Below are positions 4,555 through 49,731 of a DNA stretch of 64,000 bases, piece by piece. Source of the stretch: a virus; the IMG/VR virus record IMGVR_UViG_3300045988_144650, one strand, 5' to 3'. The position numbers were made by a program, and so were the translations under genes. The notes below the pieces were generated by a model. It was not told the origin of the DNA. It made no database searches and saw only the letters and a program-made list of their open reading frames with translations. The stretch's first letter is position 1, and every line of letters begins with the position of its first letter.

Positions 4555-4978
4555 AACAGTTCAGCCGGACGGCTGCCTGCCATACCTCCAGCAGATCGCT
4601 CTCGTTCAGAAACGAGATAGCTGCTGTGGCAAGCAAGTTCGCTGCTGCGATTTTCTTCATATACTCGTCGGGAAGTCTTGTCAGAAACTTTCCGATCCTC
4701 GCCTTAGACATTTTTTCGGGGTTCTCACACAAAACCATGCTGTCTCTCCGCAGACCGGTGTCTGCAGCGAGCACGACCACATGGGTCGGCTGGTTTGTTT
4801 TCTTGATAGAGCTGGTGAGTGGAAGTGCAATCACATTAGGGCTGTGTGCATTACCGACATTATTCTGAAACACCACGCCAGGTCTCCATCCGCTTTGCTC
4901 GTTCCCGCTACCCTCAAACTTCATCAGGTAGACATCTCCGATCACCGGAGCCATACTACTCTGCCGATTCTCGCTCAT
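4544..4978 (-). CDS. MazF/PemK-family endoribonuclease toxin.
   Basis: GDVYLMKF...GWRPGVVFQNN...VIALPLTSS...THVVVL...GLRRDSMVLCE matches the MazF/PemK fold signature. Confidence 0.7.
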   Translation of the reverse strand: MSENRQSSMAPVIGDVYLMKFEGSGNEQSGWRPGVVFQNNVGNAHSPNVIALPLTSSIKKTNQPTHVVVLAADTGLRRDSMVLCENPEKMSKARIGKFLTRLPDEYMKKIAAANLLATAAISFLNESDLLEVWQAAVRLNCCAA

Positions 4979-5073
4979 TCTTCAGTTCCTCCTATGTCGA
5001 GTCCTCTTTCCTCCTGTTGTGACCCAATTATAGCACGAACTGACGCGTATGTCAATACTTATTTATGAAGTTT

Positions 5074-13668: not shown

Positions 13669-14529
13669 TCACAGCCACCGCTCAACATAGTCGCGGTCTT
13701 GTGTGAAAATCGGAGGCTCCTTGTCGATAATCCATTTGCGTCTGGAAACCGTGATGGTCTTACCGGGATTTTTCGGGTCAGGCATATTGGTTTCCTCAGC
13801 TTGCCTATAGCAGCAAGAACCTCTCTTGCAATCCACGGGGAAATCGTTCCAGTTGATACCATGTACCTGCCACAGCATCTCCTGAATCATGTTTGTGGTC
13901 TTCTTATGAAGCTGATTAGCGCTGAAATACGCTTGTCCAACAGCCTCAATACTGTTCCTGGTGGCATCCTGCTGTCGCCAAATCAAGCAGTTGCAAACTT
14001 CATCTTTGGGAACTGAGAATGCACGAGAATCAAAAAGAGCACCCTTATTCAGCGCCCTCTTCAAAGTTTCTGCGTATTTGTTCAGTTCCTTTTTGATCTC
14101 AGGATCTTCGCCATACATACCACTCAGTACATCTTCCCGATTAAAATAATCATCAATGTTCTGATAGAGCGCCTTGTTAAAAGCCAGGGTTGCCAGCGAT
14201 GCTGAGATGCTGCACATCTTCTGGAGGTTATATCCAAACCACGCATCGGTTGTGATGGTCGCGTAGTCCGTCAAAACCAAAGTGATTTCGTCAGACTGTG
14301 TGTAGCCAAATACACAACCCTGAATATTGGCGCAGAGACTTTGCATGGTCTGTTGCATGGTTTTCATCAAGATAGAATCAAAAGGCTTTTTCATGCCCTT
14401 TGTAAAGGTGTGAAACGCCTTGCCGTCAATGCGGATCACAACTGGGACTCTGCGTGTCAGATAGCTACGAGAAATATTTTCATAGCTCTCTTTCATACGG
14501 TCACCCAAAGAGTCCTTCTTATTGCTCAT
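13669..14529 (-). CDS. Thg1-like protein (tRNA-His guanylyltransferase / 3'-5' polymerase family).
   Basis: VVIRIDGKAFHTFTKGMKKPFD...YTQSDEITLVL matches the Thg1 catalytic core (RIDGRxFHxF...KPxD...QSDEIS). Confidence 0.7.
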   Translation of the reverse strand: MSNKKDSLGDRMKESYENISRSYLTRRVPVVIRIDGKAFHTFTKGMKKPFDSILMKTMQQTMQSLCANIQGCVFGYTQSDEITLVLTDYATITTDAWFGYNLQKMCSISASLATLAFNKALYQNIDDYFNREDVLSGMYGEDPEIKKELNKYAETLKRALNKGALFDSRAFSVPKDEVCNCLIWRQQDATRNSIEAVGQAYFSANQLHKKTTNMIQEMLWQVHGINWNDFPVDCKRGSCCYRQAEETNMPDPKNPGKTITVSRRKWIIDKEPPIFTQDRDYVERWL

Positions 14530-15871
14530 CGCTGCACCATCCTTTCATAATCAAATGTTTAATGATTGCGGGGCGCTCGTTTTCAAGGTTACCACTGATG
14601 ACAGCATCAAGAACCTCGTTTAGAATTCGCCCAACATCTTTACCCTCTTTTACATCGCAGAGGTTCATAATGTCATACCCGTCAATGACCAGATCCTTCA
14701 GCTTAAAACATTGGTTCTGCTCAATGATTTCGCTTGCCATCATGCCAAGAGCGACACATCTGTCAATGCGAGACTCTTGCGTATCTTTTCTGTGAGCCAG
14801 AATATCTGCCATGCGAATATCAAGTAGCCGCATGAACTGCTTTTCACCGACTTTATTGAGCCATCTACGAACTGTTTTGGGGGTAGGCTCAATAACTGCA
14901 TCGTGATACAGCACCAGTTCAAGAATGTCGTCTCGCGATTTGTTATCAAAACGAAGTCTTGTTAGGACTTTTTCTGCAAGGTCATGGCTGAAAACCCCGT
15001 GACCGTAGAAGTGCCCACCATTGTGATCTTCTGTATAACAGCATGGTTTACCAATGTCGTGAAGCAGAAGTGATACATTTACCACCGGATCTGTGGCGTC
15101 GTAGTTTGCAACCGCATGAGCAATATGATCGTAAATCGTAAACTCATGGAATCTGTTGTTCTGGTCAAACCCAATGCAAGGCTTAAGTTCGGGGATAATC
15201 GTTGCCATCACATCGCTATATTCGAGCAGGATATTAAGAATACCCTTGCCGGCCAGCATCTTGCATAGTTCTGACTGGATGCGCTCTGCAGCAATGTTCA
15301 TCAACCTATCTTTGTTTTGGTGGATGGATCTTGCTGTTTCTTCAGCAATAGAAAAACCATAGACAGATGCAAATCGCATTGCTCTGAGGATACGCAGCGC
15401 ATCCTCTCCAAACCTATCGTCTGGATTTCCAACACAAGAAATCATGCCGCGTTCCAAATCTTCTTTGCCACCAAAAGGATCAATCAGGCCATTGTGGTTG
15501 TATGCCATTGCGTTAATGGTGAAGTCTCTGCGAGCCAGATCTTCGACCACATCCGTTACGAATCTTACGGTATCGGGGTGGCGGTTGTCTGAGTATTCAC
15601 CATCCACTCGGAATGTAGTGACCTCATACTGTCCATCGTCCATTACAATGGTTACAGTGCCGTGCTTCAGCCCTGTTTCGATCACACGCTTGTCACAAAA
15701 ACTGTATAGAATTTGTGACGGAGAAGCAGATGTACACACATCCCAATCCTTAGGCTCGACGCCAAGCAGACTGTCTCTTACACAGCCACCAACCACATAT
15801 GCGTCATATCCTGCCTGCTGTAGAGTATGGATAATAACTTGGGCGCCATGAGGAATATTGATATTACTCAT
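14519..15871 (-). CDS. cca: CCA-adding enzyme (class II tRNA nucleotidyltransferase with HD domain).
   Basis: GGCVRDSLLG...DWD head motif, RDFTINAMA, RILRAMRF and a downstream HD motif LLLHDIGK. Confidence 0.85.
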   Translation of the reverse strand: MSNINIPHGAQVIIHTLQQAGYDAYVVGGCVRDSLLGVEPKDWDVCTSASPSQILYSFCDKRVIETGLKHGTVTIVMDDGQYEVTTFRVDGEYSDNRHPDTVRFVTDVVEDLARRDFTINAMAYNHNGLIDPFGGKEDLERGMISCVGNPDDRFGEDALRILRAMRFASVYGFSIAEETARSIHQNKDRLMNIAAERIQSELCKMLAGKGILNILLEYSDVMATIIPELKPCIGFDQNNRFHEFTIYDHIAHAVANYDATDPVVNVSLLLHDIGKPCCYTEDHNGGHFYGHGVFSHDLAEKVLTRLRFDNKSRDDILELVLYHDAVIEPTPKTVRRWLNKVGEKQFMRLLDIRMADILAHRKDTQESRIDRCVALGMMASEIIEQNQCFKLKDLVIDGYDIMNLCDVKEGKDVGRILNEVLDAVISGNLENERPAIIKHLIMKGWCSDEQ

Positions 15872-16886
15872 TGATCGCCCTCCTGTTCACTTCCACCACG
15901 AACTCTTCAACGCGCTTCATATTAGGTGTTACCGGCAGGTCAGTGTTTTCCTTGGCGTACTTCAAACGCTTCTCGTAGTCGTTCACCAAGTCAAAGAATT
16001 CCTGTCTATATGAACCGTCTTCTCTCTGGAATTTGCCATTACGAATACTCAGTAAAAACTCCCGATCTCCGTAACGGTAGGTGTTGATCTCACCCTTTTC
16101 CAGAATGTCAAGGCACATCATGTACAGACGGATCAGGTGCATGGCGTGCTTGTTGAGATGGTTGTCGTCCTTTTTACGATTTCGATGATTCAGCTTTTCA
16201 TAGTTGCCAATGACATTGGAAAGCGTATTTATCATCACGCTGAAATCTCTTGCGGGGAATTTGTCGATGTGAATGTTGCAAAAGACCTCTCGATCCAAAT
16301 CATCGCGTGGACTTTCATCTGTGAACAGGGTAATGCCGCCACTATCCATCACAGAATAGCGGTCTGCAAAAGCCTTGAAAGAACGCTCCATTGCGCTTCG
16401 AATGTGTTCTTCGGTATCCGCCTGACACATTTTGTCTCTTGCCAGAGCATTCTGCAAACGGCGTAGTTGCTGCGTTGCATACCCGCCAAAAGAATTAACT
16501 GCTTTCTGAGAAAGGAAGAGATCGCGGTTGTCAATCATCATCTGTCCAGCGTCAGAGATGTAAAAATAATGCTCTGGCTTGCAGCCGAGCATCTCAATGG
16601 TGTTAGGGTTGCAGTTAAGCAAAAGACCAATCAGTTTATTAAACCCGTAGATCGTGGTATCAGTCTGCGTGTGTACGACCTGCTCAAAATTCGTGAGGCC
16701 GAGGATATCGCTTTTGCTGTTCATCGCACACCCTCGAATATCAACATCTGAGGTTTCGATGTTCGTGCCGTAGGCGTAACTACCGCCCAGCGTCAGAAAC
16801 ATGATGCGACCTTTGAGATGTGGGTTGGTTCGCAGAAAATCATATTCTTCGCTTGCCATCATCTCTTTGATTTGTTCAATCGTCAT
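15864..16886 (-). CDS. Pol-beta superfamily nucleotidyltransferase, RNA-repair-associated type.
   Basis: GGSYAYGTNIETSDVDIRG is the GS...D.D nucleotidyltransferase signature. The gene is co-operonic with the CCA enzyme and the Thg1-like gene. Confidence 0.55.
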   Translation of the reverse strand: MTIEQIKEMMASEEYDFLRTNPHLKGRIMFLTLGGSYAYGTNIETSDVDIRGCAMNSKSDILGLTNFEQVVHTQTDTTIYGFNKLIGLLLNCNPNTIEMLGCKPEHYFYISDAGQMMIDNRDLFLSQKAVNSFGGYATQQLRRLQNALARDKMCQADTEEHIRSAMERSFKAFADRYSVMDSGGITLFTDESPRDDLDREVFCNIHIDKFPARDFSVMINTLSNVIGNYEKLNHRNRKKDDNHLNKHAMHLIRLYMMCLDILEKGEINTYRYGDREFLLSIRNGKFQREDGSYRQEFFDLVNDYEKRLKYAKENTDLPVTPNMKRVEEFVVEVNRRAINE

Positions 16887-25491: not shown

Positions 25492-26700
25492 CTACCTCTC
25501 TTCTTCGCCGGCTTTGAAATTATAGATCGGCTTAATAACCGAAATAATCTTTGCCGTCGGCTCAATATTGTCGACAATGTCTTCCATATTCTTGTATGCC
25601 ATAGGGCACTCATCAAGAGTGCTTTGACCTACAGATGTCGTATAAATTCCACTCATCTGCTTTTTGAACTCAGAAACTGTAAATGTCTGCTTTGCCGCAC
25701 TTCTGCTCATCAATCGACCTGCTCCATGAGGTGCAGAATAGTTCCAATCTTCATTACCCTTACCAATACAGATTAGACTTCCATCTCTCATGTTGATCGG
25801 GATCAGAAGTTTTTCTTCGTTCTGTGCAGAAACAGCTCCCTTTCGCAGAATCATATTATCCAAATCAATATAGTTATGAATTGTTGTAAATTGTTCAACA
25901 ACATGGAACCCCATGTTCTTTACAATAATATCCATCATAGCTTGCCTATTTAATTCGGCAAACTGCTGTGCAATTTGCATATCGTGCAAATATTGCTCGA
26001 ACAACTCACCCTCTACATAGGCTAATGCTTTAGGGATGGATGACTGCTTAGTCTTCATCTGTTTCAAAACGGTTTGAATTTCCTTTTGGCGACCGTCTTT
26101 TTTTAATCTCTGGACAACCTCATCAATTTCATCTTTACTGTATGAGGTTAATGATTTATAAGCAGCATCCTGATAATAATTAGCTATTTCCAACCCAAGA
26201 TGTCTGCTTCCAGAATGGACGACAATATAAATATTTCCATCATCGTCTTTATTTGCTTCAATAAAATGATTACCACCACCGAGTGTTCCGATGCTGTTAT
26301 AGGCGCGATCGGTATTAACTTTGTCTGCACAAAACAGTTTTGACAAATCGATACGATCAGAAAACTTATGTGGTCTCTTATGAATTTCAAACCCAGATGG
26401 AATACTTGATCGAATTACCTTGTCCAACTTTTGTGGTTCAATATGTGTCTCTTTCAGCCGGATGGTTTCCATTCCGCATCCAATATCAACCCCTACAAGA
26501 TTGGGGCATATCTTGTCCTTGATAGTCATTGTGGTTCCAATTGTACACCCTGCACCAGCATGAATGTCGGGCATCATTCGAACTCTGCTTCCCTCCATAT
26601 AGGGTTGATTCAGCAAATTTATCACCTGAGAGATAGATTCGTTGTCGACCACATCAGTAAATACTTTTGCAATGCCGTATTTTCCGCTCAACTCAAACAT
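25492..26700 (-). CDS. rtcB: RtcB-family RNA ligase (3'-phosphate/5'-OH).
   Basis: DIHAGAGCTIG, GGGNHF and HGAGR motifs. Confidence 0.85.
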   Translation of the reverse strand: MFELSGKYGIAKVFTDVVDNESISQVINLLNQPYMEGSRVRMMPDIHAGAGCTIGTTMTIKDKICPNLVGVDIGCGMETIRLKETHIEPQKLDKVIRSSIPSGFEIHKRPHKFSDRIDLSKLFCADKVNTDRAYNSIGTLGGGNHFIEANKDDDGNIYIVVHSGSRHLGLEIANYYQDAAYKSLTSYSKDEIDEVVQRLKKDGRQKEIQTVLKQMKTKQSSIPKALAYVEGELFEQYLHDMQIAQQFAELNRQAMMDIIVKNMGFHVVEQFTTIHNYIDLDNMILRKGAVSAQNEEKLLIPINMRDGSLICIGKGNEDWNYSAPHGAGRLMSRSAAKQTFTVSEFKKQMSGIYTTSVGQSTLDECPMAYKNMEDIVDNIEPTAKIISVIKPIYNFKAGEEER

Positions 26701-27453: not shown

Positions 27454-27609
27454 TTATAATGCAGAAGAACACACGAAGTGATCTCCGCACGATCCTTTAG
27501 GATCGAAGCAGATCACGAGTGTGAAAAGTAACAAAACCTTACTTCGATTTACAATACGAAGCGACTGCCTCTATGTATGATTGTGTATGGCAGACCATGT
27601 GCATTATAA
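27454..27609 (-). ncRNA. Family-1 structured element, short copy D.
   Basis: Terminal inverted repeats TTATAATGCA and TGCATTATAA flank SL1 (CTGCC/GGCAG) and the conserved SL2 CTTCG-ATTTACAATA-CGAAG. Confidence 0.4.
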
Positions 27610-27707: not shown

Positions 27708-27815
27708 TATTGATACAAAACATCTTTATTTACAACGGGGTATGGGGTTTACCCCAGATAAGCTTCTCAAACCTTTACTTCGATTTACAATACGAAGCCA
27801 CCCTATGTATCAAAG
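27708..27815 (-). ncRNA. Family-1 structured element, short copy E.
   Basis: a1-like CTTTGATAC and a2-like GTATCAA with the conserved SL2 CTTCG-ATTTACAATA-CGAAG. Confidence 0.35.
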
Positions 27816-29527: not shown

Positions 29528-29637
29528 CTGGTGGAGAGGGATGGATTCGAACCACCGAAGCTTAATTGACCACACGGCGCCACAAGTCAAAAAGCGGAGA
29601 TTTACAGTCCCCGACTTTGGCCACTTGTCTACCTCTC
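29528..29637 (-). tRNA. tRNA-Tyr-like (anticodon GUA), atypically long at 110 nt with a ~39-nt variable arm.
   Basis: Acceptor GGAGAGG/CCTCTCC, anticodon stem-loop GGGGA-CTGTAAA-TCTCC, T-arm GGTGG-TTCGAAT-CCATC, 3' ACCA. The variable region GCTTTTTGACTTGTGGCGCCGTGTGGTCAATTAAGCTTC forms an extended hairpin. Confidence 0.55.
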
Positions 29638-29655
29638 CATATTGGTAAACTGGTC

Positions 29656-33889: not shown

Positions 33890-34218
33890 ATCTGTAATCT
33901 ACAAGTACACCCGTCTTCTTGAGGAAGCTCTGGAGGGACTCCTCGTCGAGAGCTGAGGCTTCGTGAAGCGTGAGTTCGGGATTTCGCATCGGGTCGGTGA
34001 GCGAGAAAACCCTTGTAGTTACAGGGGTTTTCGAGTGTTTCCGAGTGAGGAAAATTTATTTATTTCCTGACCCTGCGAGCAGTGTCATCTCTTGCGCCGG
34101 GCGAATTCGCTGGAGGCGCCTGCCGCAGCGGCGTGCCCCTGGTATTTCCCCCCGGCCATTCGTAACTCCGATTTACAATACGGAGCATTAACTGAAACAG
34201 TTAATAATGCATTACAGA
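33890..34218 (-). ncRNA. Family-1 structured element, long copy B (about 329 nt, retron-ncRNA-like architecture).
   Basis: Minus-strand a1 ATCTGTAAT immediately followed by G, then the conserved CATTA-SL1-TGC-SL2(CTCCG-TATTGTAAAT-CGGAG)-TTACGAATGG module, a variable GC-rich ~230-nt body, and a2 ATTACAGAT 27 nt upstream of the next gene start. Confidence 0.45.
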
Positions 34219-34820: not shown

Positions 34821-35157
34821 CTTTGTAATCATTACATATATATCCTGATTCCCTTCAGTGCGATCATCGATGGGATGCCAATCCCAGTTCTGTCGTCATC
34901 TGATGTGATTTGGACTTCTTGCAGTTGGGAAACCACCTAATTCCGAGGTCTTAGTTGGTGTTTTGCACGGAATTATTTATTTAGTCTTGGTTCAACCGCC
35001 GGAGACTGGGTGCCTCTTGAGGTGTTAACGCGTTGACGGCCGGCGGAGCTGCGGGCGTCACCAGTGGTGGGCTATGTGTTTCCTCCCGACCATTCGTTAC
35101 TTTGATTGACAATACAAAGTGCTACTTGCCAAAGACAAACAGCTATGCATTACAAAG
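34821..35157 (-). ncRNA. Family-1 structured element, long copy C (about 337 nt).
   Basis: a1 CTTTGTAAT-G and a2 ATTACAAAG carry compensatory changes relative to copies A and B. SL2 is CTTTG-TATTGTCAAT-CAAAG. The conserved TAACGAATGG block is present. Confidence 0.45.
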
Positions 35158-36075: not shown

Positions 36076-37221
36076 CTACTGGTTGAGATCCTCGCTCATG
36101 CTTTTCATAACATCGGTGTGGAACTTCTCATTGTTGTACTTGATTACGCTATCTACATACTCTTTTTCGACCATGCTGTAATAGTTGACCAAACCACGCA
36201 GAACCTGTACATCGTGCAGATCCCAATGGCGACCATTCTGCCGGTCGAGAATGTAGTTGCAAATCATTGCCCGCAAGCGCTGTTTGTTCTTATAACCAAT
36301 GGTGATCTCATTATCCTTATTGAGCATCACACCGAGGTTCCAATTACTTCCAGCGCGTGAGCCATAGCGCGTCTTTTCGTCTTTGATCTTAAAAGGAGCA
36401 CCAAACTCTGCGAGGGTAGAATTGATAAAGCCGATGATTTCATCCTTATCAAAACCCTTACGGCTTGAAAAGAGAGAGTCATCGGCATATCTGGTATATA
36501 CATAATGATTTCCATTGAAGTCACGCAGGCAATTGTTGATACGATGGTCAATGGGAATCATCATCAGATTTGTGAGCATAGGGGAAATAGGTGTTCCCTG
36601 CGGGAGACCACCGTTCAGGAAACACAGATCCAACGCTTTTTCCAAAGCATCAAATCCGCGCTGAGATTTTACGATCTCGCTAAATGGAAATACTTTGGAA
36701 AGCATAGACATCAGGAACTTCGGAGTTGTGCTGCCAAAGAAGTCAGAGAAGTCGGTCTTGAGGAACCAATGACTCTCATTCTTCTGATGACGCTTTACCG
36801 CGTCGATGGTAGATCTTCCGGGAACATAAGCAAATGCGCTGGTATGATACAGCGCAAACATCTGGGTTTCAAAAATCGTTTTCAGATTTCTGAGCGCATT
36901 CATCAGCGCTGGCTGCGGCGCATTGATCTCACGCAAGCCACCGGACTTCTTAGGGATATAGAACTTATCGTAGAGGTCGCTGCGCTTTGCCTCGTAAAGT
37001 TTAGCGTTCTGCTTGCAAAACTCTTCCAAGGTTACGACCATTGCATCAATATCAAAACGCTCAAGGAACTTGGGGTTCAGAACTTTGGAAAAGTAAGTTC
37101 TTGTGTTGGTCTCATTGGGGTTGACCATGTTGGCGAGATTGACATTCCCCGAAATAATTTCATCAAATGTGATCTGATGGAAAATCGGAGACTGCATCAG
37201 CGTAATGTAAGGCACTTCCAA
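36076..37221 (-). CDS. Reverse transcriptase, retron-type.
   Basis: RT motifs: IPKKSGGLREINAP (1/2), AYVPGRS, FLKTDFSDFFGS (A), GLPQGTPISPMLTNL (B'), YTRYADD (C), and a downstream KT....NLGVML resembling the retron VTG region. Start follows AAAGGAGG. Confidence 0.75.
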   Translation of the reverse strand: MEVPYITLMQSPIFHQITFDEIISGNVNLANMVNPNETNTRTYFSKVLNPKFLERFDIDAMVVTLEEFCKQNAKLYEAKRSDLYDKFYIPKKSGGLREINAPQPALMNALRNLKTIFETQMFALYHTSAFAYVPGRSTIDAVKRHQKNESHWFLKTDFSDFFGSTTPKFLMSMLSKVFPFSEIVKSQRGFDALEKALDLCFLNGGLPQGTPISPMLTNLMMIPIDHRINNCLRDFNGNHYVYTRYADDSLFSSRKGFDKDEIIGFINSTLAEFGAPFKIKDEKTRYGSRAGSNWNLGVMLNKDNEITIGYKNKQRLRAMICNYILDRQNGRHWDLHDVQVLRGLVNYYSMVEKEYVDSVIKYNNEKFHTDVMKSMSEDLNQ

Positions 37222-37242: not shown

Positions 37243-37569
37243 ATCTGTAATCTACATACTCTGTGATGAGATGACCAGATCAGCTCAGGATACTCGTAGA
37301 TCTTCAGATTCCTGGATTCGGACATCTGATGGCTATGAAGTAACGGTGAACTCCTGGTTGTGCAGGTAATGAGTCTTGGATTTCCTGTGGTTCCTTAAAG
37401 TTTTCTTCAGGAGACACTGATGAAACTCTTGACTTTTGCTGTATAACCTGCGATGCTGCGACCGAGTCGCTGCAGCGTTTCTGGGTAGCCGGGTATTTCC
37501 CGTCCACCATTCGTAACTTTGATTTACAATACAAAGCACTTCCTATTCGGGAAGTAATGCATTACAGAT
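37243..37569 (-). ncRNA. Family-1 structured element, long copy A (about 327 nt), directly 5' of the RT gene. Candidate retron msr-msd ncRNA.
   Basis: a1 ATCTGTAAT-G at the 5' end (minus strand). SL1 is CTTCC-CGAATA-GGAAG and SL2 is CTTTG-TATTGTAAAT-CAAAG, followed by TTACGAATGG. a2 ATTACAGAT lies 22 nt upstream of the RT start. Confidence 0.5.
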
Positions 37570-44051: not shown

Positions 44052-44293
44052 ACACCTCCCTCATGTTGTCAGCGCTGAACTGAAACACACCGTTGAGGAA
44101 AACCTCAATGTGCTCACGAACCCATCTGATTTCGTACATAAGATTTCCTCCTTTTCCTCTTTGGTGAGATGGCTCTTTTTCTGCGTTGAAAATACAGAGA
44201 TTCTTTTTAAGGGTGACACCCCGAAAACCCGCATGAACACGGGCTTTTCTTTTTATTTTGCGACCGGAGTCGTCGCAAAACCGTTTCGGTCTG

Positions 44294-44345
44294 CTCTGCA
44301 TTTACACGGGCTTGCAACCGTTTTGGAAACCCAAAGCTGCATTAG
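44294..44345. repeat. Family-2 two-hairpin element, copy 1.
   Basis: CTCTGCATTTACACGG-GCTTGCAA-CCGT-TTTGG-AAAC-CCAAA-GCTGCATTAG. It is followed on the minus strand by TTGCGA-17-TAAAAA and a hairpin. Confidence 0.45.
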
Positions 44346-44426
44346 ACCAGGCGGGAAACCGCCTGACCGTAGAAAGGAAAGGAAGCCGAAAGCCAAAGCA
44401 TTCAGCAAAAGTCGCCATGTGGCGAT

Positions 44427-44514
44427 GGCGGAGAGGGTGGGATTCGAACCCACGGAGGTTTTACCCTCGCCGGTTTTCAAGACCGGTTCCTTAAACCAGC
44501 TCGAACACCTCTCC
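44427..44514 (-). tRNA. tRNA-Ser (anticodon UGA), type II.
   Basis: Acceptor GGAGAGG, anticodon stem-loop CCGGT-CTTGAAA-ACCGG, long variable arm, T-arm GTGGG-TTCGAAT-CCCAC, 3' GCCA. Confidence 0.7.
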
Positions 44515-44518
44515 TTAT

Positions 44519-44746
44519 TCAATAGATGGCGACCGTTTTGGTGAACAGAAGATACAGACCCATGGGAGCAGTCAGCAGAACTGCGGTTGCATCTTTATCT
44601 TCAACCGTGGTTCCCTGAGAAGCTATGTAAATGAGCAGGATGCTCATGGCGATCAGCGCCAAACCATAAAGCTTCTGGATAAACAGCTTCTTGCGACGGA
44701 TCTGATTGCGGGTTCTCTTACTAACAGCTTGCGTGCTCATTTTCAA
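44519..44746 (-). CDS. Small membrane protein.
   Basis: 75 aa with a basic N-terminus and two hydrophobic helices. Confidence 0.4.
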   Translation of the reverse strand: MKMSTQAVSKRTRNQIRRKKLFIQKLYGLALIAMSILLIYIASQGTTVEDKDATAVLLTAPMGLYLLFTKTVAIY

Positions 44747-45237
44747 ACCTCCTCAGAATACGGATACTGAATAACTTTGTCCCCATCAACGATGGGGTGA
44801 CGAATGGAAAACCCATATGCGTCGTAGAGATATTCCTCAAACGCAGATGCGATTTCCTCAATGCAGTCATCATCGAAGCACTCGTCCGGTTCGCACTCCA
44901 ACAGAACGGAGAGGTAATCAATGGTTGCGCTGTGGATTTCTCCAAGTCGGTCAAGGTCTTCTGCATCCAAAACCTCATCGCTATCGGTTTCGCAGATGTA
45001 GAGATTGAGAAGCTGCGAGTAAACCTTTTCGATTTCAGCTTCAGAACTTGCTTTGGCTTCGTATTCAACGACTCCGTCCACTTCAACCGTGAAGTAAGGC
45101 AAACCCTCTTCCTCGGTGATGTAAACCTCGGCGCCAACCTCTGCTTCATCAGCGACCAAGCGATATTCGCTCTGCAGGGCAAACCGATTTTCGTTGTAGA
45201 ACTTTCGGATCTCGCCAACAGATACAATCGCTGCCAT
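44743..45237 (-). CDS. Hypothetical acidic protein.
   Basis: Likely start MAAIVSVGEI at 45237 after AAAGGAGG. The track extension to 45291 would run through the family-2 element. Confidence 0.45.
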   Translation of the reverse strand: MAAIVSVGEIRKFYNENRFALQSEYRLVADEAEVGAEVYITEEEGLPYFTVEVDGVVEYEAKASSEAEIEKVYSQLLNLYICETDSDEVLDAEDLDRLGEIHSATIDYLSVLLECEPDECFDDDCIEEIASAFEEYLYDAYGFSIRHPIVDGDKVIQYPYSEEV

Positions 45238-45275
45238 CTGAACACCTCCTTTTCCTGTTAAATTCAAAACTTTCC

Positions 45276-45321
45276 ACTCTGCATTTCTCATGCGGGCTTG
45301 TGACCGCCATTGGCTGCATTA
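45276..45321. repeat. Family-2 element, copy 4 (short form).
   Basis: CTCTGCATTTCTCATGCGG-GCTTGTGA-CCGC-CATTGGCTGCATTAG. The hairpin-1 stem changed ACGG/CCGT to GCGG/CCGC (compensatory). TTGAAT follows 9 nt downstream on the minus strand. Confidence 0.4.
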
Positions 45322-45549
45322 GAAAACCCCTCTTGAGAACAGGTAAGCAGCCGATTCACAAGAGGGGAATTTCCCCCGCGTTCAGGTGTTAATGCGGGAT
45401 TGTTTAATCAATCATAAACTTTAATCATTTGGATAACACCTGCCCAAAGCAAGAGGTCAGCGCTAACCCCTCACTCTCCGCATTTCGGGAATCTTTTCGC
45501 ATACGGTACGCCGCGTCAAGGCTCGTCGCGGAAAACCCTGCCAGGGATG

Positions 45550-45621
45550 TGACATGAGCAAGACTCGAACTTGCGACACGCCGGTCATATCCGGTTGCTC
45601 TACCGACTGAGCTATCATGCC
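45550..45621 (-). tRNA. tRNA-like element or pseudo-tRNA, with no encoded CCA and a noncanonical anticodon arm.
   Basis: Canonical D-arm TAGCTCAGTCGGTAGAGC and T-arm GCAAG-TTCGAGT-CTTGC with acceptor GGCATGA/TCATGTC. The anticodon region CCGG-ATATGA-CCGG gives only a 4-bp stem and a 6-nt loop. Confidence 0.4.
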
Positions 45622-45838
45622 ATAGCAGGAGAAGCGTGGACTTTTGCCAAAGCCTCCAGAGCCTCAAAACTCTCTACGACGGTTTTGTGAGCGCAGGCAA
45701 TCGCACAACGATCACAGTCAATGTGCATACCGCGATTACAGCACACATTGCAGGAGTAACGGAAACTTCCTTGTGCTTTTCGCTTACTGGTCGCGCCGTA
45801 CTGAATTTCGACACCGATTTCTTCAAATCTGGTCATCG
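45615..45838 (-). CDS. Small Cys-rich protein.
   Basis: Likely start MTRFEE... after AAAGGAG. The body reads CNVCCNRGMHIDCDRCAIACAH. Confidence 0.4.
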
Positions 45839-46124
45839 TAACAACTCCTTTCGTATTGAATTTTGAAACCTGGGAGACGCGCTCCACCGACCGCCATTGT
45901 GGCGGTTATCGTCTTAATTTTCAAAGACTCATCAGGGTGGCTCTACCCACGGCAACAAAAGGAGCAAGGCAAATTGTTTTCTGTTTGAGAACTTGTCTGC
46001 CTCTGCACACTTGCGAGGAGATCACAAGTCGGTTTAATTCATAAGACCTTGCAGCTTTCGTTTTCCGTTTTTTGGCATAAAAAAGACCCTCCAGAGAAAC
46101 CGGAAGGTCTTGATAGGGAAAAGC

Positions 46125-46455
46125 TTATTCAGTTGTTTTGAAAACGCCCTTAACCGTTACGGACGCTCTAACGGTGCCGTCATTCAACGGCAAAATCTCG
46201 AATGTGTTGCATCTGCTCAAAACCTCTTTGAGCCTCAAAGCTCCATCCTTGTCCAGGTGGATCGCAGGAACTTCAACGGTAACGCTTCCAGAGGTAAAGT
46301 TCGGGAACAGCTTCAGCTCCGGCAGAGTTCCAATCAGGCTGGAAACCTCAGTGAAAACCTGGCTCAAAACCTCATACCGTTCCGGGACAATTTCCTTGTT
46401 CTCATTGCCCTCGGTCACAGCGGAATACAACAAGGCTTCAAAAACCTCGCCAAAC
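46125..46455 (-). CDS. Hypothetical protein.
   Basis: No ATG in frame. The likely start is a GTG next to GAGAGGAG, and the exact start is uncertain. Confidence 0.35.
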
Positions 46456-46477
46456 TCGTACAGATTTCTCACACTCC

Positions 46478-46510
46478 TCTCGTTTTTCAAATCGTGCTTA
46501 TTATAGCACA
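46478..46510 (-). promoter_or_regulatory. Sigma-70-like promoter, TTGAAA-17-TGcTATAAT (minus strand).
   Basis: Minus strand reads TTGAAAAACGATCCGATTTGTGCTATAAT: the -35 TTGAAA, 17 nt, then the -10 TATAAT with a TG extension. It lies 11 nt downstream of family-2 copy 2. Confidence 0.5.
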
Positions 46511-46544
46511 AATCGGATCGTTTTTCAATTCAAGACCCTGCCCA

Positions 46545-46599
46545 CTCTGCGTTTACACGGACTTGTGACCGTTTGCAAAACCTTTGCAAGTCGCATTAG
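46545..46599. repeat. Family-2 two-hairpin element, copy 2.
   Basis: CTCTGCGTTTACACGG-ACTTGTGA-CCGT-TTGCAAA-ACC-TTTGCAA-GTCGCATTAG. Confidence 0.45.
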
Positions 46600-46633
46600 G
46601 CGCGGAGAGCCGAAACCCTCCGCGTTTGGGGAT

Positions 46634-47473
46634 TTATGCGGCAGCTTCAGCCTTCTTGACAACAACGGTCTCGGCTTCAGCAACCTTCTTGGAAGCCTTG
46701 GGCTTGGTCTGCTTAGCGGTTTCGGTCTTAGGTTCGGAACCTTCAGCCACATTGGAAGTGCGCTTGTGGTCGACACCGTAAGTGCCATTGGTAACTACGC
46801 GATGGAACACATCCATCAGCAAGCTCTGGAGGATGGTGTGCTTGGAACAGATAACCCTCAGAGCGGTCTTGTTGTTCTTCTTGGCGTAACAGAGCCAGAT
46901 GTAAGCCAGGTCATGGCTGTTCACGCGACCTTCGCCTTCGGAAAGAGAGTCCAAAACCTTCTGCATATGCTTAACGCACTGGGTATCGGAAGTCGGGGTC
47001 TTGCCAAGGTCGATTTCGGCAGCCAGCTTATCCATGCTGTAACTGTCGTCGATGGATTTCATTTCCTTTGCGGAAACCCCAAGCTCGGTGGCAGCCTTGA
47101 GGGTCAGGCGCTTGTTAAGAGCCTGCATCTCATAGAACCAACCCATGTCCAGGCTCTTGTACTCGCAGAACTTGCGGAGGTCAATCTGAACCATACGCTC
47201 AGACTTTTCGACGCCGGTCATAACGCCGTCCTCGGAGATCTTCTTGTGGGAAATGGTGGTGAAGTGGTGCTGCACGAGTGCTTCGTGAACATCAGCACAA
47301 GAAGCGAAAACCTCCTTCTCACGAAGGGCGCGGTAATCGTTCTCGATGTTCTTCAGCTCGGTAAGCTTGCCCTCAACCTCTGCGGCGGTGCCTTTGGCAC
47401 AAATCTTGTTGACCTCGGCGATTTTCGCCTCATAATCGGCAAGAAGTCGGGCTTTAATGTCTTTTGTTGCCAT
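46634..47473 (-). CDS. Hypothetical protein, 279 aa, with a Lys/Ala-rich C-terminal tail.
   Basis: Strong RBS AAAGGAG. The C-terminus reads KQTKPKASKKVAEAETVVVKKAEAAA. Confidence 0.45.
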   Translation of the reverse strand: MATKDIKARLLADYEAKIAEVNKICAKGTAAEVEGKLTELKNIENDYRALREKEVFASCADVHEALVQHHFTTISHKKISEDGVMTGVEKSERMVQIDLRKFCEYKSLDMGWFYEMQALNKRLTLKAATELGVSAKEMKSIDDSYSMDKLAAEIDLGKTPTSDTQCVKHMQKVLDSLSEGEGRVNSHDLAYIWLCYAKKNNKTALRVICSKHTILQSLLMDVFHRVVTNGTYGVDHKRTSNVAEGSEPKTETAKQTKPKASKKVAEAETVVVKKAEAAA

Positions 47474-48041
47474 AGTTCTTACTCCTTTATGGTTTATTTA
47501 TGGGCAAGCCCATAATGAAGCGCAGTAACCCTTGTGGAGCTACTGCGCTCGATATAGACTTGCGTAGCAAGGGCAAGCCCCTGCGCGCATAAACTTTTTG
47601 ATTGACAAATCATGCTCGCTCAAGTAATTCCCCTGGTCGCCTTACATCTGCGCTATACACCTCCTTGAAGCTTTCACGCATAACACCCAACTCTACCACG
47701 ATAGAGGCATCCTTGATACCTAAACCGCTTAACGGCTTTATCAAATGCTGCTCAGAAACCAGGCTGCATAAGTGAGCCAACACTTATTCACTTGCGCTTA
47801 TTCATATCGCTCAAAGGTCATAGTGACTATAACCTATTGCCGAGAACTCAATACTACCCGCGTTCAGTATCCGCGCACTCTGAACCTAACTTTCAGAATT
47901 TTTGGCTGACCTTCTCTTATGGCGGTTGAAGCCGCGCTCGTGGTAAGAGTACCCTTCTTTTGGTGGCAAAAGTACCCCTTGTGTATGCCCATCAAGGTGG
48001 CGCGTTGGATCGCTCAACCAAGTAAAAACCTGGTCGAACCA

Positions 48042-48099
48042 CTCTGCATTTATACGGGCTTGTGACCGTTCGCCGGAAACCTCCGGCAAGCTGCATTAG
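48042..48099. repeat. Family-2 two-hairpin element, copy 3.
   Basis: CTCTGCATTTATACGG-GCTTGTGA-CCGT-TCGCCGGA-AACC-TCCGGC-AAGCTGCATTAG. Confidence 0.45.
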
Positions 48100-48132
48100 T
48101 TCTTTGGGTCTTTCCGTGTGCGCTTTTGCGCT

Positions 48133-48376
48133 CGTTTCGGTTGCCCCATATACACGCACACGGCTGTATGTCACCCTGTGCGGTGTGGCTGTCCGTTTCG
48201 GTTGCCCCATATACACGCACACGGCTGTATGTCACCCTGTGCGGTGTGGCTGTCCGTTTCGGTTGCCCCATATACACGCACACGGCTGTATGTCACCCTG
48301 TGCGGTGTGGCTGTCCGTTTCGGTTGCCCCATATACACGCACACGGCTGTATGTCACCCTGTGCGGTGTGGTCGCG
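48133..48376. repeat. Tandem direct repeats, 61-bp unit x 4 (3.9 copies), GC-rich.
   Basis: The unit CGTTTCGGTTGCCCCATATACACGCACACGGCTGTATGTCACCCTGTGCGGTGTGGCTGTC repeats exactly at 48133, 48194, 48255 and 48316, with a divergent last unit. A partial fifth copy (TACGCACACGGCTGTATGTCACCC) sits at 49368-49392. Confidence 0.8.
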
Positions 48377-48457
48377 GTGTGCGCGGTATATGGTAGTCAC
48401 CAGAGCGCAAAAAAAGGAGGGGCGCGGTTGCCCCTCCTGCGGTGTGTGTATGCGGTT

Positions 48458-49345: not shown

Positions 49346-49731
49346 CAGTTTTTTTCACGGCGTTATTACGCACACGGCTGTATGTCACCCAATAGGAACG
49401 GAGGCGCGTGTGCGGTCATATATCTATGTTGCAAAATGGCACTATGCAACATGGGGGCGTGTTTTCCATATTTACGGCAGAACGGCGACCAGGCTATCCG
49501 GGTAGTTGCTCCACCACATTCACAGCCCTTTTCTCTCAACTTGACCCATCACCCCAAACGCCTGTAAACACAAGGAAAATAGGGCTTTTTATTGTCGGAG
49601 AGAGTGCCGTGATCATGCTGTTTAACCACGATGATCTCTTTGAGAATAAAAAGCCCGCCTTGCTGTAATGGCTTAAAAACGCACTTTAGCATTGGTGCAA
49701 AAAATATCAACAATTTTTTATGAAGAACCCC

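Follow-up and report, generated by a model that had tools for sequence, protein, structure and literature searches.

What are the four related elements of about 60 nucleotides (nt) that recur between genes in one stretch of viral DNA, and what do they do there? They lie on the minus (coding) strand at 44288-44348, 45271-45325, 46539-46602 and 48036-48102 of the IMG/VR virus record IMGVR_UViG_3300045988_144650, whose analysed stretch of 64,000 nt is called the window below. The original prediction described four two-hairpin elements placed just upstream of promoter-like sequences and offered three roles: phage-specific transcription signals, binding sites of a common factor, or processing or stability hairpins at operon junctions. 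The last of these comes close to the truth. The elements act on the coding strand as RNA, most likely in transcript processing, and are almost certainly type-P1 twister self-cleaving ribozymes (RF03160) whose catalysis is predicted from their sequence. Taken as a whole, the locus is very probably best explained by co-transcriptional twister self-cleavage that punctuates the operon.

Twister fold of the four elements

The four copies are found where they had been placed, and the outer stem P1 carries each of them a few bases beyond its original limits. A search of the window for their 14-nt core CGGGCTTGTGACCG with up to three mismatches gives 12 matches, against 3.5 +/- 1.6 expected, and the four real copies have zero to two mismatches. 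Automatic repeat finding grouped three of the four (family D4). Rfam at its curated cut-offs reported only transfer RNAs (tRNAs) in the window; the twisters surfaced when an E-value threshold was used. All four RF03160 matches then span the full model (positions 1-68) on the minus strand only, with E-values of 1.6e-12 to 1.1e-7 when the whole 64-kb window is searched. A covariance model of our own, built from an alignment of related copies, matches exactly these four sites in the window and nothing else. Minimum-energy folds give P1, P2, P3 and P4 in three of the four copies, including those at 48036 and 46539. Published twisters share a U-A cleavage site, the pseudoknots T1 and T2, and optional stems P0 and P3 (PMC6154101).

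The copy that scores highest against RF03160, twister 4 (48102-48036, minus strand; 65.3 bits, E = 9.7e-14; 63.2 bits with our model), has P3 and pairs GAAC/GUUC in P1, UGCA/UGCA in P2, CAC/GUG in T1 and GC/GC in T2. These P2 and T2 pairings are found in three of the copies and are replaced in the fourth, at 46602-46539 (minus; 58.1 bits, E = 1.1e-11; 59.6 bits with our model), by UGCG/CGCA and AC/GU, so that each change is compensated. T1 likewise is CAC/GUG in three copies and takes the compensated form UGC/GCA in the copy at 44348-44288 (minus; 55.8 bits, E = 5.1e-11; 59.4 bits with our model), whose P1 is GGUC/GACC. Both of these copies have P3. The remaining copy, at 45325-45271 (minus; 48.3 bits, E = 7.1e-9; 67.3 bits with our model), is devoid of P3, has a longer linker between P4 and P2 (CAUGAGAAA), and forms P4 with GCGG/CCGC and P1 with UUUC/GAAA; its P3-less subtype is found again in many other loci. 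Cleavage is predicted at U48098|A48097 in twister 4, at U46598|A46597 in the next copy, 36 nt past the stop codon of a gene for a protein of 279 amino acids (aa), at U45321|A45320 in the P3-less copy, and at U44344|A44343 in the last one, which lies 78 nt downstream of tRNA-Ser(UGA).

The twister fold accounts for most of what had been seen in the letters. Hairpin 1 of the original description is P4 with its conserved loop, and the bases just outside the original limits form P1. The pairings listed for hairpin 2 are borne out and correspond to the optional stem P3; a second hairpin had been ascribed to every copy, but the copy at 45276 has none. The switch from ACGG/CCGT to GCGG/CCGC is real and belongs to this same copy, not to copy 4. 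The promoter TTGAAA-17-TGcTATAAT is also genuine, but it follows the copy at 46545 and not copy 2; the numbering of copies had been inconsistent for these two features. The flanks described as a near direct repeat do share CTGCATT, but as RNA they are the two strands of the palindromic P2 stem (UGCA/UGCA). The heptamer TAATGCA is, as noted at the outset, also present in three or four copies of another repeat family of the window.

Covariation and conserved core

Pairing was counted in an alignment of 109 distinct copies with a structure that includes both pseudoknots. The search pattern left the partners of the variable T1 and T2 bases unconstrained, so that the covariation count is a genuine test. 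Overall, 90.8% of the cells are paired, against 21-41% when the 3' partners are slid. T1, formed between the P4 loop and the internal loop separating P1 from P2, has three pairs with 99.7% of cells paired; pair 50-77 is CG in 91 copies and UA in 18, and pair 51-76 is AU in 99 and GC in 9, with one cell unpaired. T2 joins the P4 loop to the junction after P2: its pair 14-56 is GC in 97 copies and AU in 12, never unpaired, and 15-55 is CG in 108 of the 109. The stems behave in the same way. P2 is 100% paired, with AU in 93 and GC in 16 copies at its variable pair 13-69; P4 is 99% paired, and its pair 45-60 is AU in 69, GC in 19, CG in 9 and GU in 6; P3 is 95% paired with double changes at all five pairs; P1 has double changes at all six pairs, of which the inner three are 89-95% paired. 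The core (UAA, the C of P2, CGGU..CAAG.CCG, AAA and GCAGAG) is invariant or nearly so. None of the positions that are invariant in the alignment is altered in any of the four elements of the window, and these positions include the UAA with the cleavage step.

Position within the operon and in relatives

The minus strand carries the genes of the window below about 49400, as far as position 1, and the plus strand those beyond about 49800. Products of the plus arm include an integrase and a protein of 944 aa whose relatives are YonO-type polymerases, those of Clostridium phage c-st, of Enterocloster phages and of SPbeta-like phages. The minus arm opens with a protein carrying a sigma-70 region-4 domain, followed by a strong terminator (48438-48415), 4.4 copies of a 61-nt tandem repeat and the region of the twisters.

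Within this region each twister tends to be preceded by a stable hairpin. At related loci, folding energies for the final 45 nt of the predicted 5' product average -13.3 kcal/mol, those of controls -7.2 (P = 7.5e-47), and a hairpin ends at most 6 nt from the cleavage site in 156 of 206 distinct loci. A U-tract (at least five T in the next 8 nt), the mark of intrinsic terminators, follows only two of these 156 hairpins, and conserved non-U sequence follows the hairpins of the ribozyme themselves. Three of the four copies in the window have such an upstream hairpin on the minus strand. The one at 46601-46624, without U-tract, stands directly 5' of the twister that begins at 46602 (last 45 nt, -17.8 kcal/mol). 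The hairpin CCCCUCUUG...CAAGAGGGG at 45329-45367 (-16.2 kcal/mol) is followed by UUUUC, the P1 5' strand of the twister beginning at 45325, and at 44345-44368 the hairpin GGUCAGGCGG-UUUC-CCGCCUGGUC (-15.1 kcal/mol) includes in its 3' arm the P1 5' strand of the twister beginning at 44348. By its position the upstream hairpin presumably corresponds to the optional P0 stem of the published consensus. A P0 stem is reported in 21% of twisters (PMC6154101).

The arrangement downstream is as regular. Among 223 distinct sites in related contigs, with the coding strand judged by purine skew and by statistics of ribosome-binding sites and start codons, the sense strand is the purine-rich one in about 90% of the flanks. 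A Shine-Dalgarno site and the start codon of an open reading frame (ORF) of at least 50 aa are found within 60 nt downstream at 120 of 208 sites (58%); the antisense side has them at 6 of 205 (3%), and random positions at 13%. A median of 42 nt separates the end of the preceding long ORF from the ribozyme. The usual layout is gene end, hairpin without U-tract, twister, about 20-35 nt, ribosome-binding site and start codon. In the window it is best seen at the P3-less copy: the ATG of the next gene (45239) lies 31 nt past the 3' end of the twister, with AAAGGAGG ahead of it.

A narrow sequence pattern matched viral contigs and genome contigs, at least 120 of each, the genome contigs being mostly from Oscillospiraceae, Lachnospiraceae, Ruminococcaceae and other Clostridia. 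In one relative about 82% identical to the window (L143), four twisters are kept in the same order and spacing; a second (L249) has four in the window order; a third (L128) has three, two of which flank the homologue (63% identical) of the 279-aa gene, while the remaining one stands at the position of the copy at 44288. It had been proposed that absence of the elements from related phages with conserved flanking genes would speak against a function. Syntenic copies are kept instead, which by the same yardstick argues for function. Searches of GenBank phage genomes with the 6-kb region gave a match through the tRNA-Ser gene only and no cultured close relative, and a 59-nt twister query gave two weak matches.

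Proposed role and alternatives

In bacteria, twisters and hammerheads are found close to phage genes, and it has been suggested that they process polycistronic mRNAs (PMC6765202). We privilege the hypothesis that, during leftward transcription, each ribozyme folds and would cleave its own RNA at the U-A step directly after the 5' strand of P1. This would leave the upstream RNA with a 2',3'-cyclic phosphate behind a stable terminal hairpin without U-tract, that is, with a protected 3' end formed without termination. The downstream RNA would begin with a 5'-OH, and its first 55-65 nt or so would be the compact ribozyme fold, lying in most relatives 20-35 nt before what appears to be the next ribosome-binding site. 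Four twisters and a hammerhead-like element could in this way divide the transcript into pieces, each with a stability and a translation of its own. For the 279-aa gene, the copy at 46539 would supply the mRNA with its 3' end, shortly before an internal promoter, and the copy at 45271 would form the head of the mRNA for the gene starting at 45239. Twister 4 would trim transcripts started in the tandem repeats, giving the structured leader behind it a uniform 5' end whatever the upstream start site. That the role is punctuation and insulation of transcripts, over other consequences of cleavage, seems to us somewhat the better bet.

Several observations weigh against this interpretation. None of the four copies attains the curated gathering cut-off of RF03160 (67.2 bits, an annotation threshold that represents no structural feature), from which they fall short by 2-19 bits. 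The shortfall is explained by the compensated changes in T1, the absence of the optional P3 from one copy and the longer linker, and the relatives tested score likewise, below the cut-off. For T1 the Rfam consensus is CCC/GGG, from which CAC/GUG departs. That the elements are transcribed is assumed from the direction of the genes, and twister 4 lies after the strong terminator at 48438-48415, so that it needs a putative promoter in the 61-nt repeats. The short distance to the start codon that is typical of related loci is found in the window at copy 2 (45271) only; for the other three copies it is 60-70, 149 and 562 nt. Finally, the 5'-OH product of the Bacillus glmS ribozyme is degraded by RNase J1 (cited in PMC6765202). 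By this precedent cleavage might destabilise the downstream RNA and not protect it, and the sign of the effect is the main uncertainty.

The 61-nt repeats on which twister 4 would depend occupy 48100-48432, in about 4.4 copies, between the terminator and the twister. Each unit holds a promoter-like GTGACA-16-TATATG, and a 23-nt piece of the repeat recurs at 49368-49390, upstream of the gene with the sigma region-4 domain. They could be tandem promoters or regulator sites. The relative L143 apparently has fewer copies.

A twister could serve as a down-regulating device, its 5'-OH downstream fragment being handed to decay of the RNase J1 type so that downstream expression is lowered or timed. 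RNase J is present in Firmicutes, the host group is Clostridia (Firmicutes), and the ribozyme identity of the elements suits decay equally well. We nevertheless regard this alternative as unlikely. The regular placement 20-35 nt before the ribosome-binding site and the protective upstream hairpin suggest selection for defined and stable ends, no ligand-sensing part is evident, and the twister fold reportedly buries the 5' end of the 3' fragment (PMC8782182), which should hinder a 5' exonuclease. The copies could also be decayed or selfish, twister-derived repeats without cleavage or without use to the phage, an idea to which the sub-threshold Rfam scores and the core insertion of the neighbouring hammerhead-like element lend some weight. 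This alternative is very improbable, given that all positions invariant in the relatives are intact here, that changes in T1, T2, P2 and P4 are compensated and non-random, and that the copies keep their places, with 63-82% identity to relatives, even as the stems drift. Still less probable, close to negligible, is the idea that the elements are signals at the level of DNA or transcription, associated with promoters or recognised by the sigma-region-4-like protein or the YonO-like RNA polymerase. The phage encodes both proteins and one copy, at 46539, stands 10 nt upstream of a near-consensus sigma-70-like promoter (46528-46500, minus strand; 11 of 12 matches plus TG). A -35-like hexamer had been read after each copy, but a standard scan supports a promoter at a fixed short distance after this one alone of the four, and promoter-like sites within 90 nt downstream are not enriched across loci (18 of 219 related sites, 8%, against 27 of 587 control windows, 5%). 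The flanks pair with each other and with the loop of hairpin 1, as helices and pseudoknots of RNA with perfect compensatory changes that a DNA-binding site would not need; the ribozyme model matches one strand only; and hundreds of unrelated phage and prophage contigs contain the motif. The transcription-signal reading, including sites for a common factor, is already largely refuted.

The ends left by cleavage invite a further alternative, in which they are substrates of the RtcB ligase of the phage and yield re-ligated or circular RNAs, as a natural counterpart of engineered circular RNA systems that combine twisters with RtcB. RtcB joins 2',3'-cyclic phosphate and 5'-OH ends, which are the ends made by twister cleavage. 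The gene is present on the minus strand at 25492-26700 (PHROG 1075, E = 8e-144), and successive twisters stand 1.0-1.5 kb apart. We consider this reading highly doubtful. The P1 arms of neighbouring copies (GAAC/GUUC, GCC/GGC, UUUUC/GAAAG, GGUC/GACC), compared by eye, are not complementary, so that nothing obvious would bring together the two ends of one fragment, and circularisation by pairing of neighbouring P1 arms was rejected on this ground. RtcB is accompanied by a CCA-adding enzyme and seven tRNA genes, which suggests tRNA repair as the more ordinary reading, and a link in the literature was not found. A combined scheme is conceivable, a ribozyme-punctuated unit in which hairpin and twister replace terminators, twister 4 frees the 5' end of the leader RNA described below, and RtcB acts on the ends by re-ligation, circularisation or end healing; we hold it, too, to be unlikely. 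Maturation of tRNA 3' ends was rejected as the main role, since distances of 82 and 228 nt, and a hairpin, separate the predicted cleavage sites from tRNA 3' ends. Self-cleavage that punctuates the operon remains the reading that we prefer.

A structured leader and a hammerhead-like element

Twister 4 is separated from the 279-aa gene by a leader of 562 nt (47474-48035, minus strand), which is more conserved than that gene and its protein. Directly after the twister it contains a structured domain of about 220 nt (47769-48002, minus), conserved and covarying. The domain was found as nine distinct sequences in 11 loci, each directly after a twister. Counted on seven sequences, its 55 pairs have 98% of their cells paired. 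Compensatory changes are seen at 14 of these pairs; shuffling gives 7.4 +/- 1.5 such pairs and sliding of the partners 0-2. Rfam gave no match for the leader or for the domain. In one relative (L197) the domain precedes a different gene, indicating that it is a module of its own, and in another (L027) the 3' part of the leader matches RAGATH-4 below the cut-off. What defines RAGATH RNAs is their association with the neighbourhoods of twisters and hammerheads (PMC11061315). The leader RNA may be a new member of the RNAs that accompany these ribozymes, and we think that it merits separate attention.

A hammerhead-like three-way junction whose stem I is open (45884-45941, minus strand) is found between a terminator (46111-46083) and the gene starting at 45836, with a partial Hammerhead_3 match of 20.2 bits and a fold z-score of -3.6. 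It reads GCCACC-CUGAUGAG-stem II-CGAUAAC-stem III-GUC|GGUGG. It has the first hammerhead box, CUGAUGAG, as well as three stems and the triplet GUC; in the second box an additional U turns GAAA into GAUAA, and in view of this U the element may be inactive. If active, it is predicted to cleave at C45889|G45888, 52 nt before the ATG at 45836. The canonical CGAAAC form stands at the same place in L143 (about 2640-2760) and L027 (about 4960-5070), where no Rfam hammerhead model reached an E-value of 0.01.

RNA-repair genes, tRNAs and other features

Besides RtcB, the minus strand encodes a CCA-adding tRNA nucleotidyltransferase and another nucleotidyltransferase (14519-15871 and 15864-16886). A tRNA-like gene at 45549-45621 (minus) has an anticodon loop of 6 nt (AUAUGA), for which ARAGORN gives a 2-base anticodon; in its counterpart in L143 (2997-3107) this loop contains about 38 nt more. 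The gene may represent a tRNA with an intron, a tRNA that has decayed or a processing signal that resembles a tRNA. A tRNA-Tyr(GUA)-like gene of 107 nt at 29532-29638 (minus), missed by ARAGORN and matched by Rfam with 38 bits, includes an encoded CCA and a variable arm that, at about 40 nt, is unusually long.

The other repeat family of the original prediction has minus-strand copies at 27532-27565, 27768-27801, 34156-34189, 35090-35123 and 37507-37540. Its hairpin covaries (CUCCG/CGGAG, CUUUG/CAAAG, CUUCG/CGAAG) around a conserved loop, UAUUGUAAAU, and in three copies GUAAUGCAU and a variable hairpin stand before it and GUUACGAAUGG after it. Rfam gave no match for this family, and its core pattern was found in 7 stretches of 5 viral contigs only, at least three of them relatives of this phage. 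A 381-aa ORF at 36076-37221 (minus) matches phage families annotated as 'polymerase' and reverse transcriptase (PHROG 2825, E = 6e-44; PHROG 1423, E = 4e-17).

Significance and comparison with known systems

The roles of self-cleaving ribozymes in bacteria and phages were described in a 2019 review as largely elusive, with polycistronic processing only a suggestion (PMC6765202). The locus, where 4 kb of one operon hold four twisters and a hammerhead-like element, is a compact test bed, which offers natural compensated variants of both pseudoknots, relatives of like arrangement and RtcB in the same genome. The regular succession of hairpin, twister and ribosome-binding site in about 200 loci gives a concrete and falsifiable model of function. 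Since a default Rfam scan misses the four copies as well as the relatives tested, this large Clostridia-phage subfamily is probably under-annotated.

Known self-cleaving RNAs resemble the elements to different degrees. Theta ribozymes of gut phages, which are related to those of hepatitis delta virus (HDV-like), are self-cleaving and tRNA-linked; they abut the tRNA 3' end and mature it. The twisters of this phage group can also lie 66-246 nt downstream of tRNA genes, but a spacer and a hairpin part them from the tRNA and most are not beside tRNAs at all. The glmS ribozyme is likewise a self-cleaving RNA in a Firmicutes 5' untranslated region, and its cleavage alters the fate of the mRNA. Unlike glmS, which needs a metabolite cofactor and triggers decay, the twisters have no evident sensor, stand between many unrelated genes and leave a hairpin on the upstream product. 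Engineered insulators, of the RiboJ type or used in ribozyme-assisted polycistronic expression, place a ribozyme just upstream of the ribosome-binding site, as do 58% of the related natural sites; they remove variable upstream RNA and leave a 5' end structured as a hairpin. They are synthetic and built on other ribozymes, and we infer that the natural elements work in the same manner. Bacterial and phage hammerheads share the intergenic position and the same kind of gene neighbourhood, with one hammerhead-like element in this very operon, but the twister fold and active site are unrelated to theirs.

The closest likeness is to the type-P1 twister itself (RF03160), reportedly described by Roth et al. 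in 2014: helices P1, P2, optional P3 and P4, two pseudoknots, the core and the U-A dinucleotide are the same, and so is the habitat in Clostridia and among phage-like genes, beside hammerheads and RAGATH RNAs. The present elements differ from it in T1, which is CAC/GUG (or UGC/GCA, UAC/GUA, CGC/GCG) where the consensus has CCC/GGG, and in the copy that is devoid of P3 and has a longer linker between P4 and P2. They are further members of a known ribozyme class in a known kind of neighbourhood, and in that respect of modest interest.

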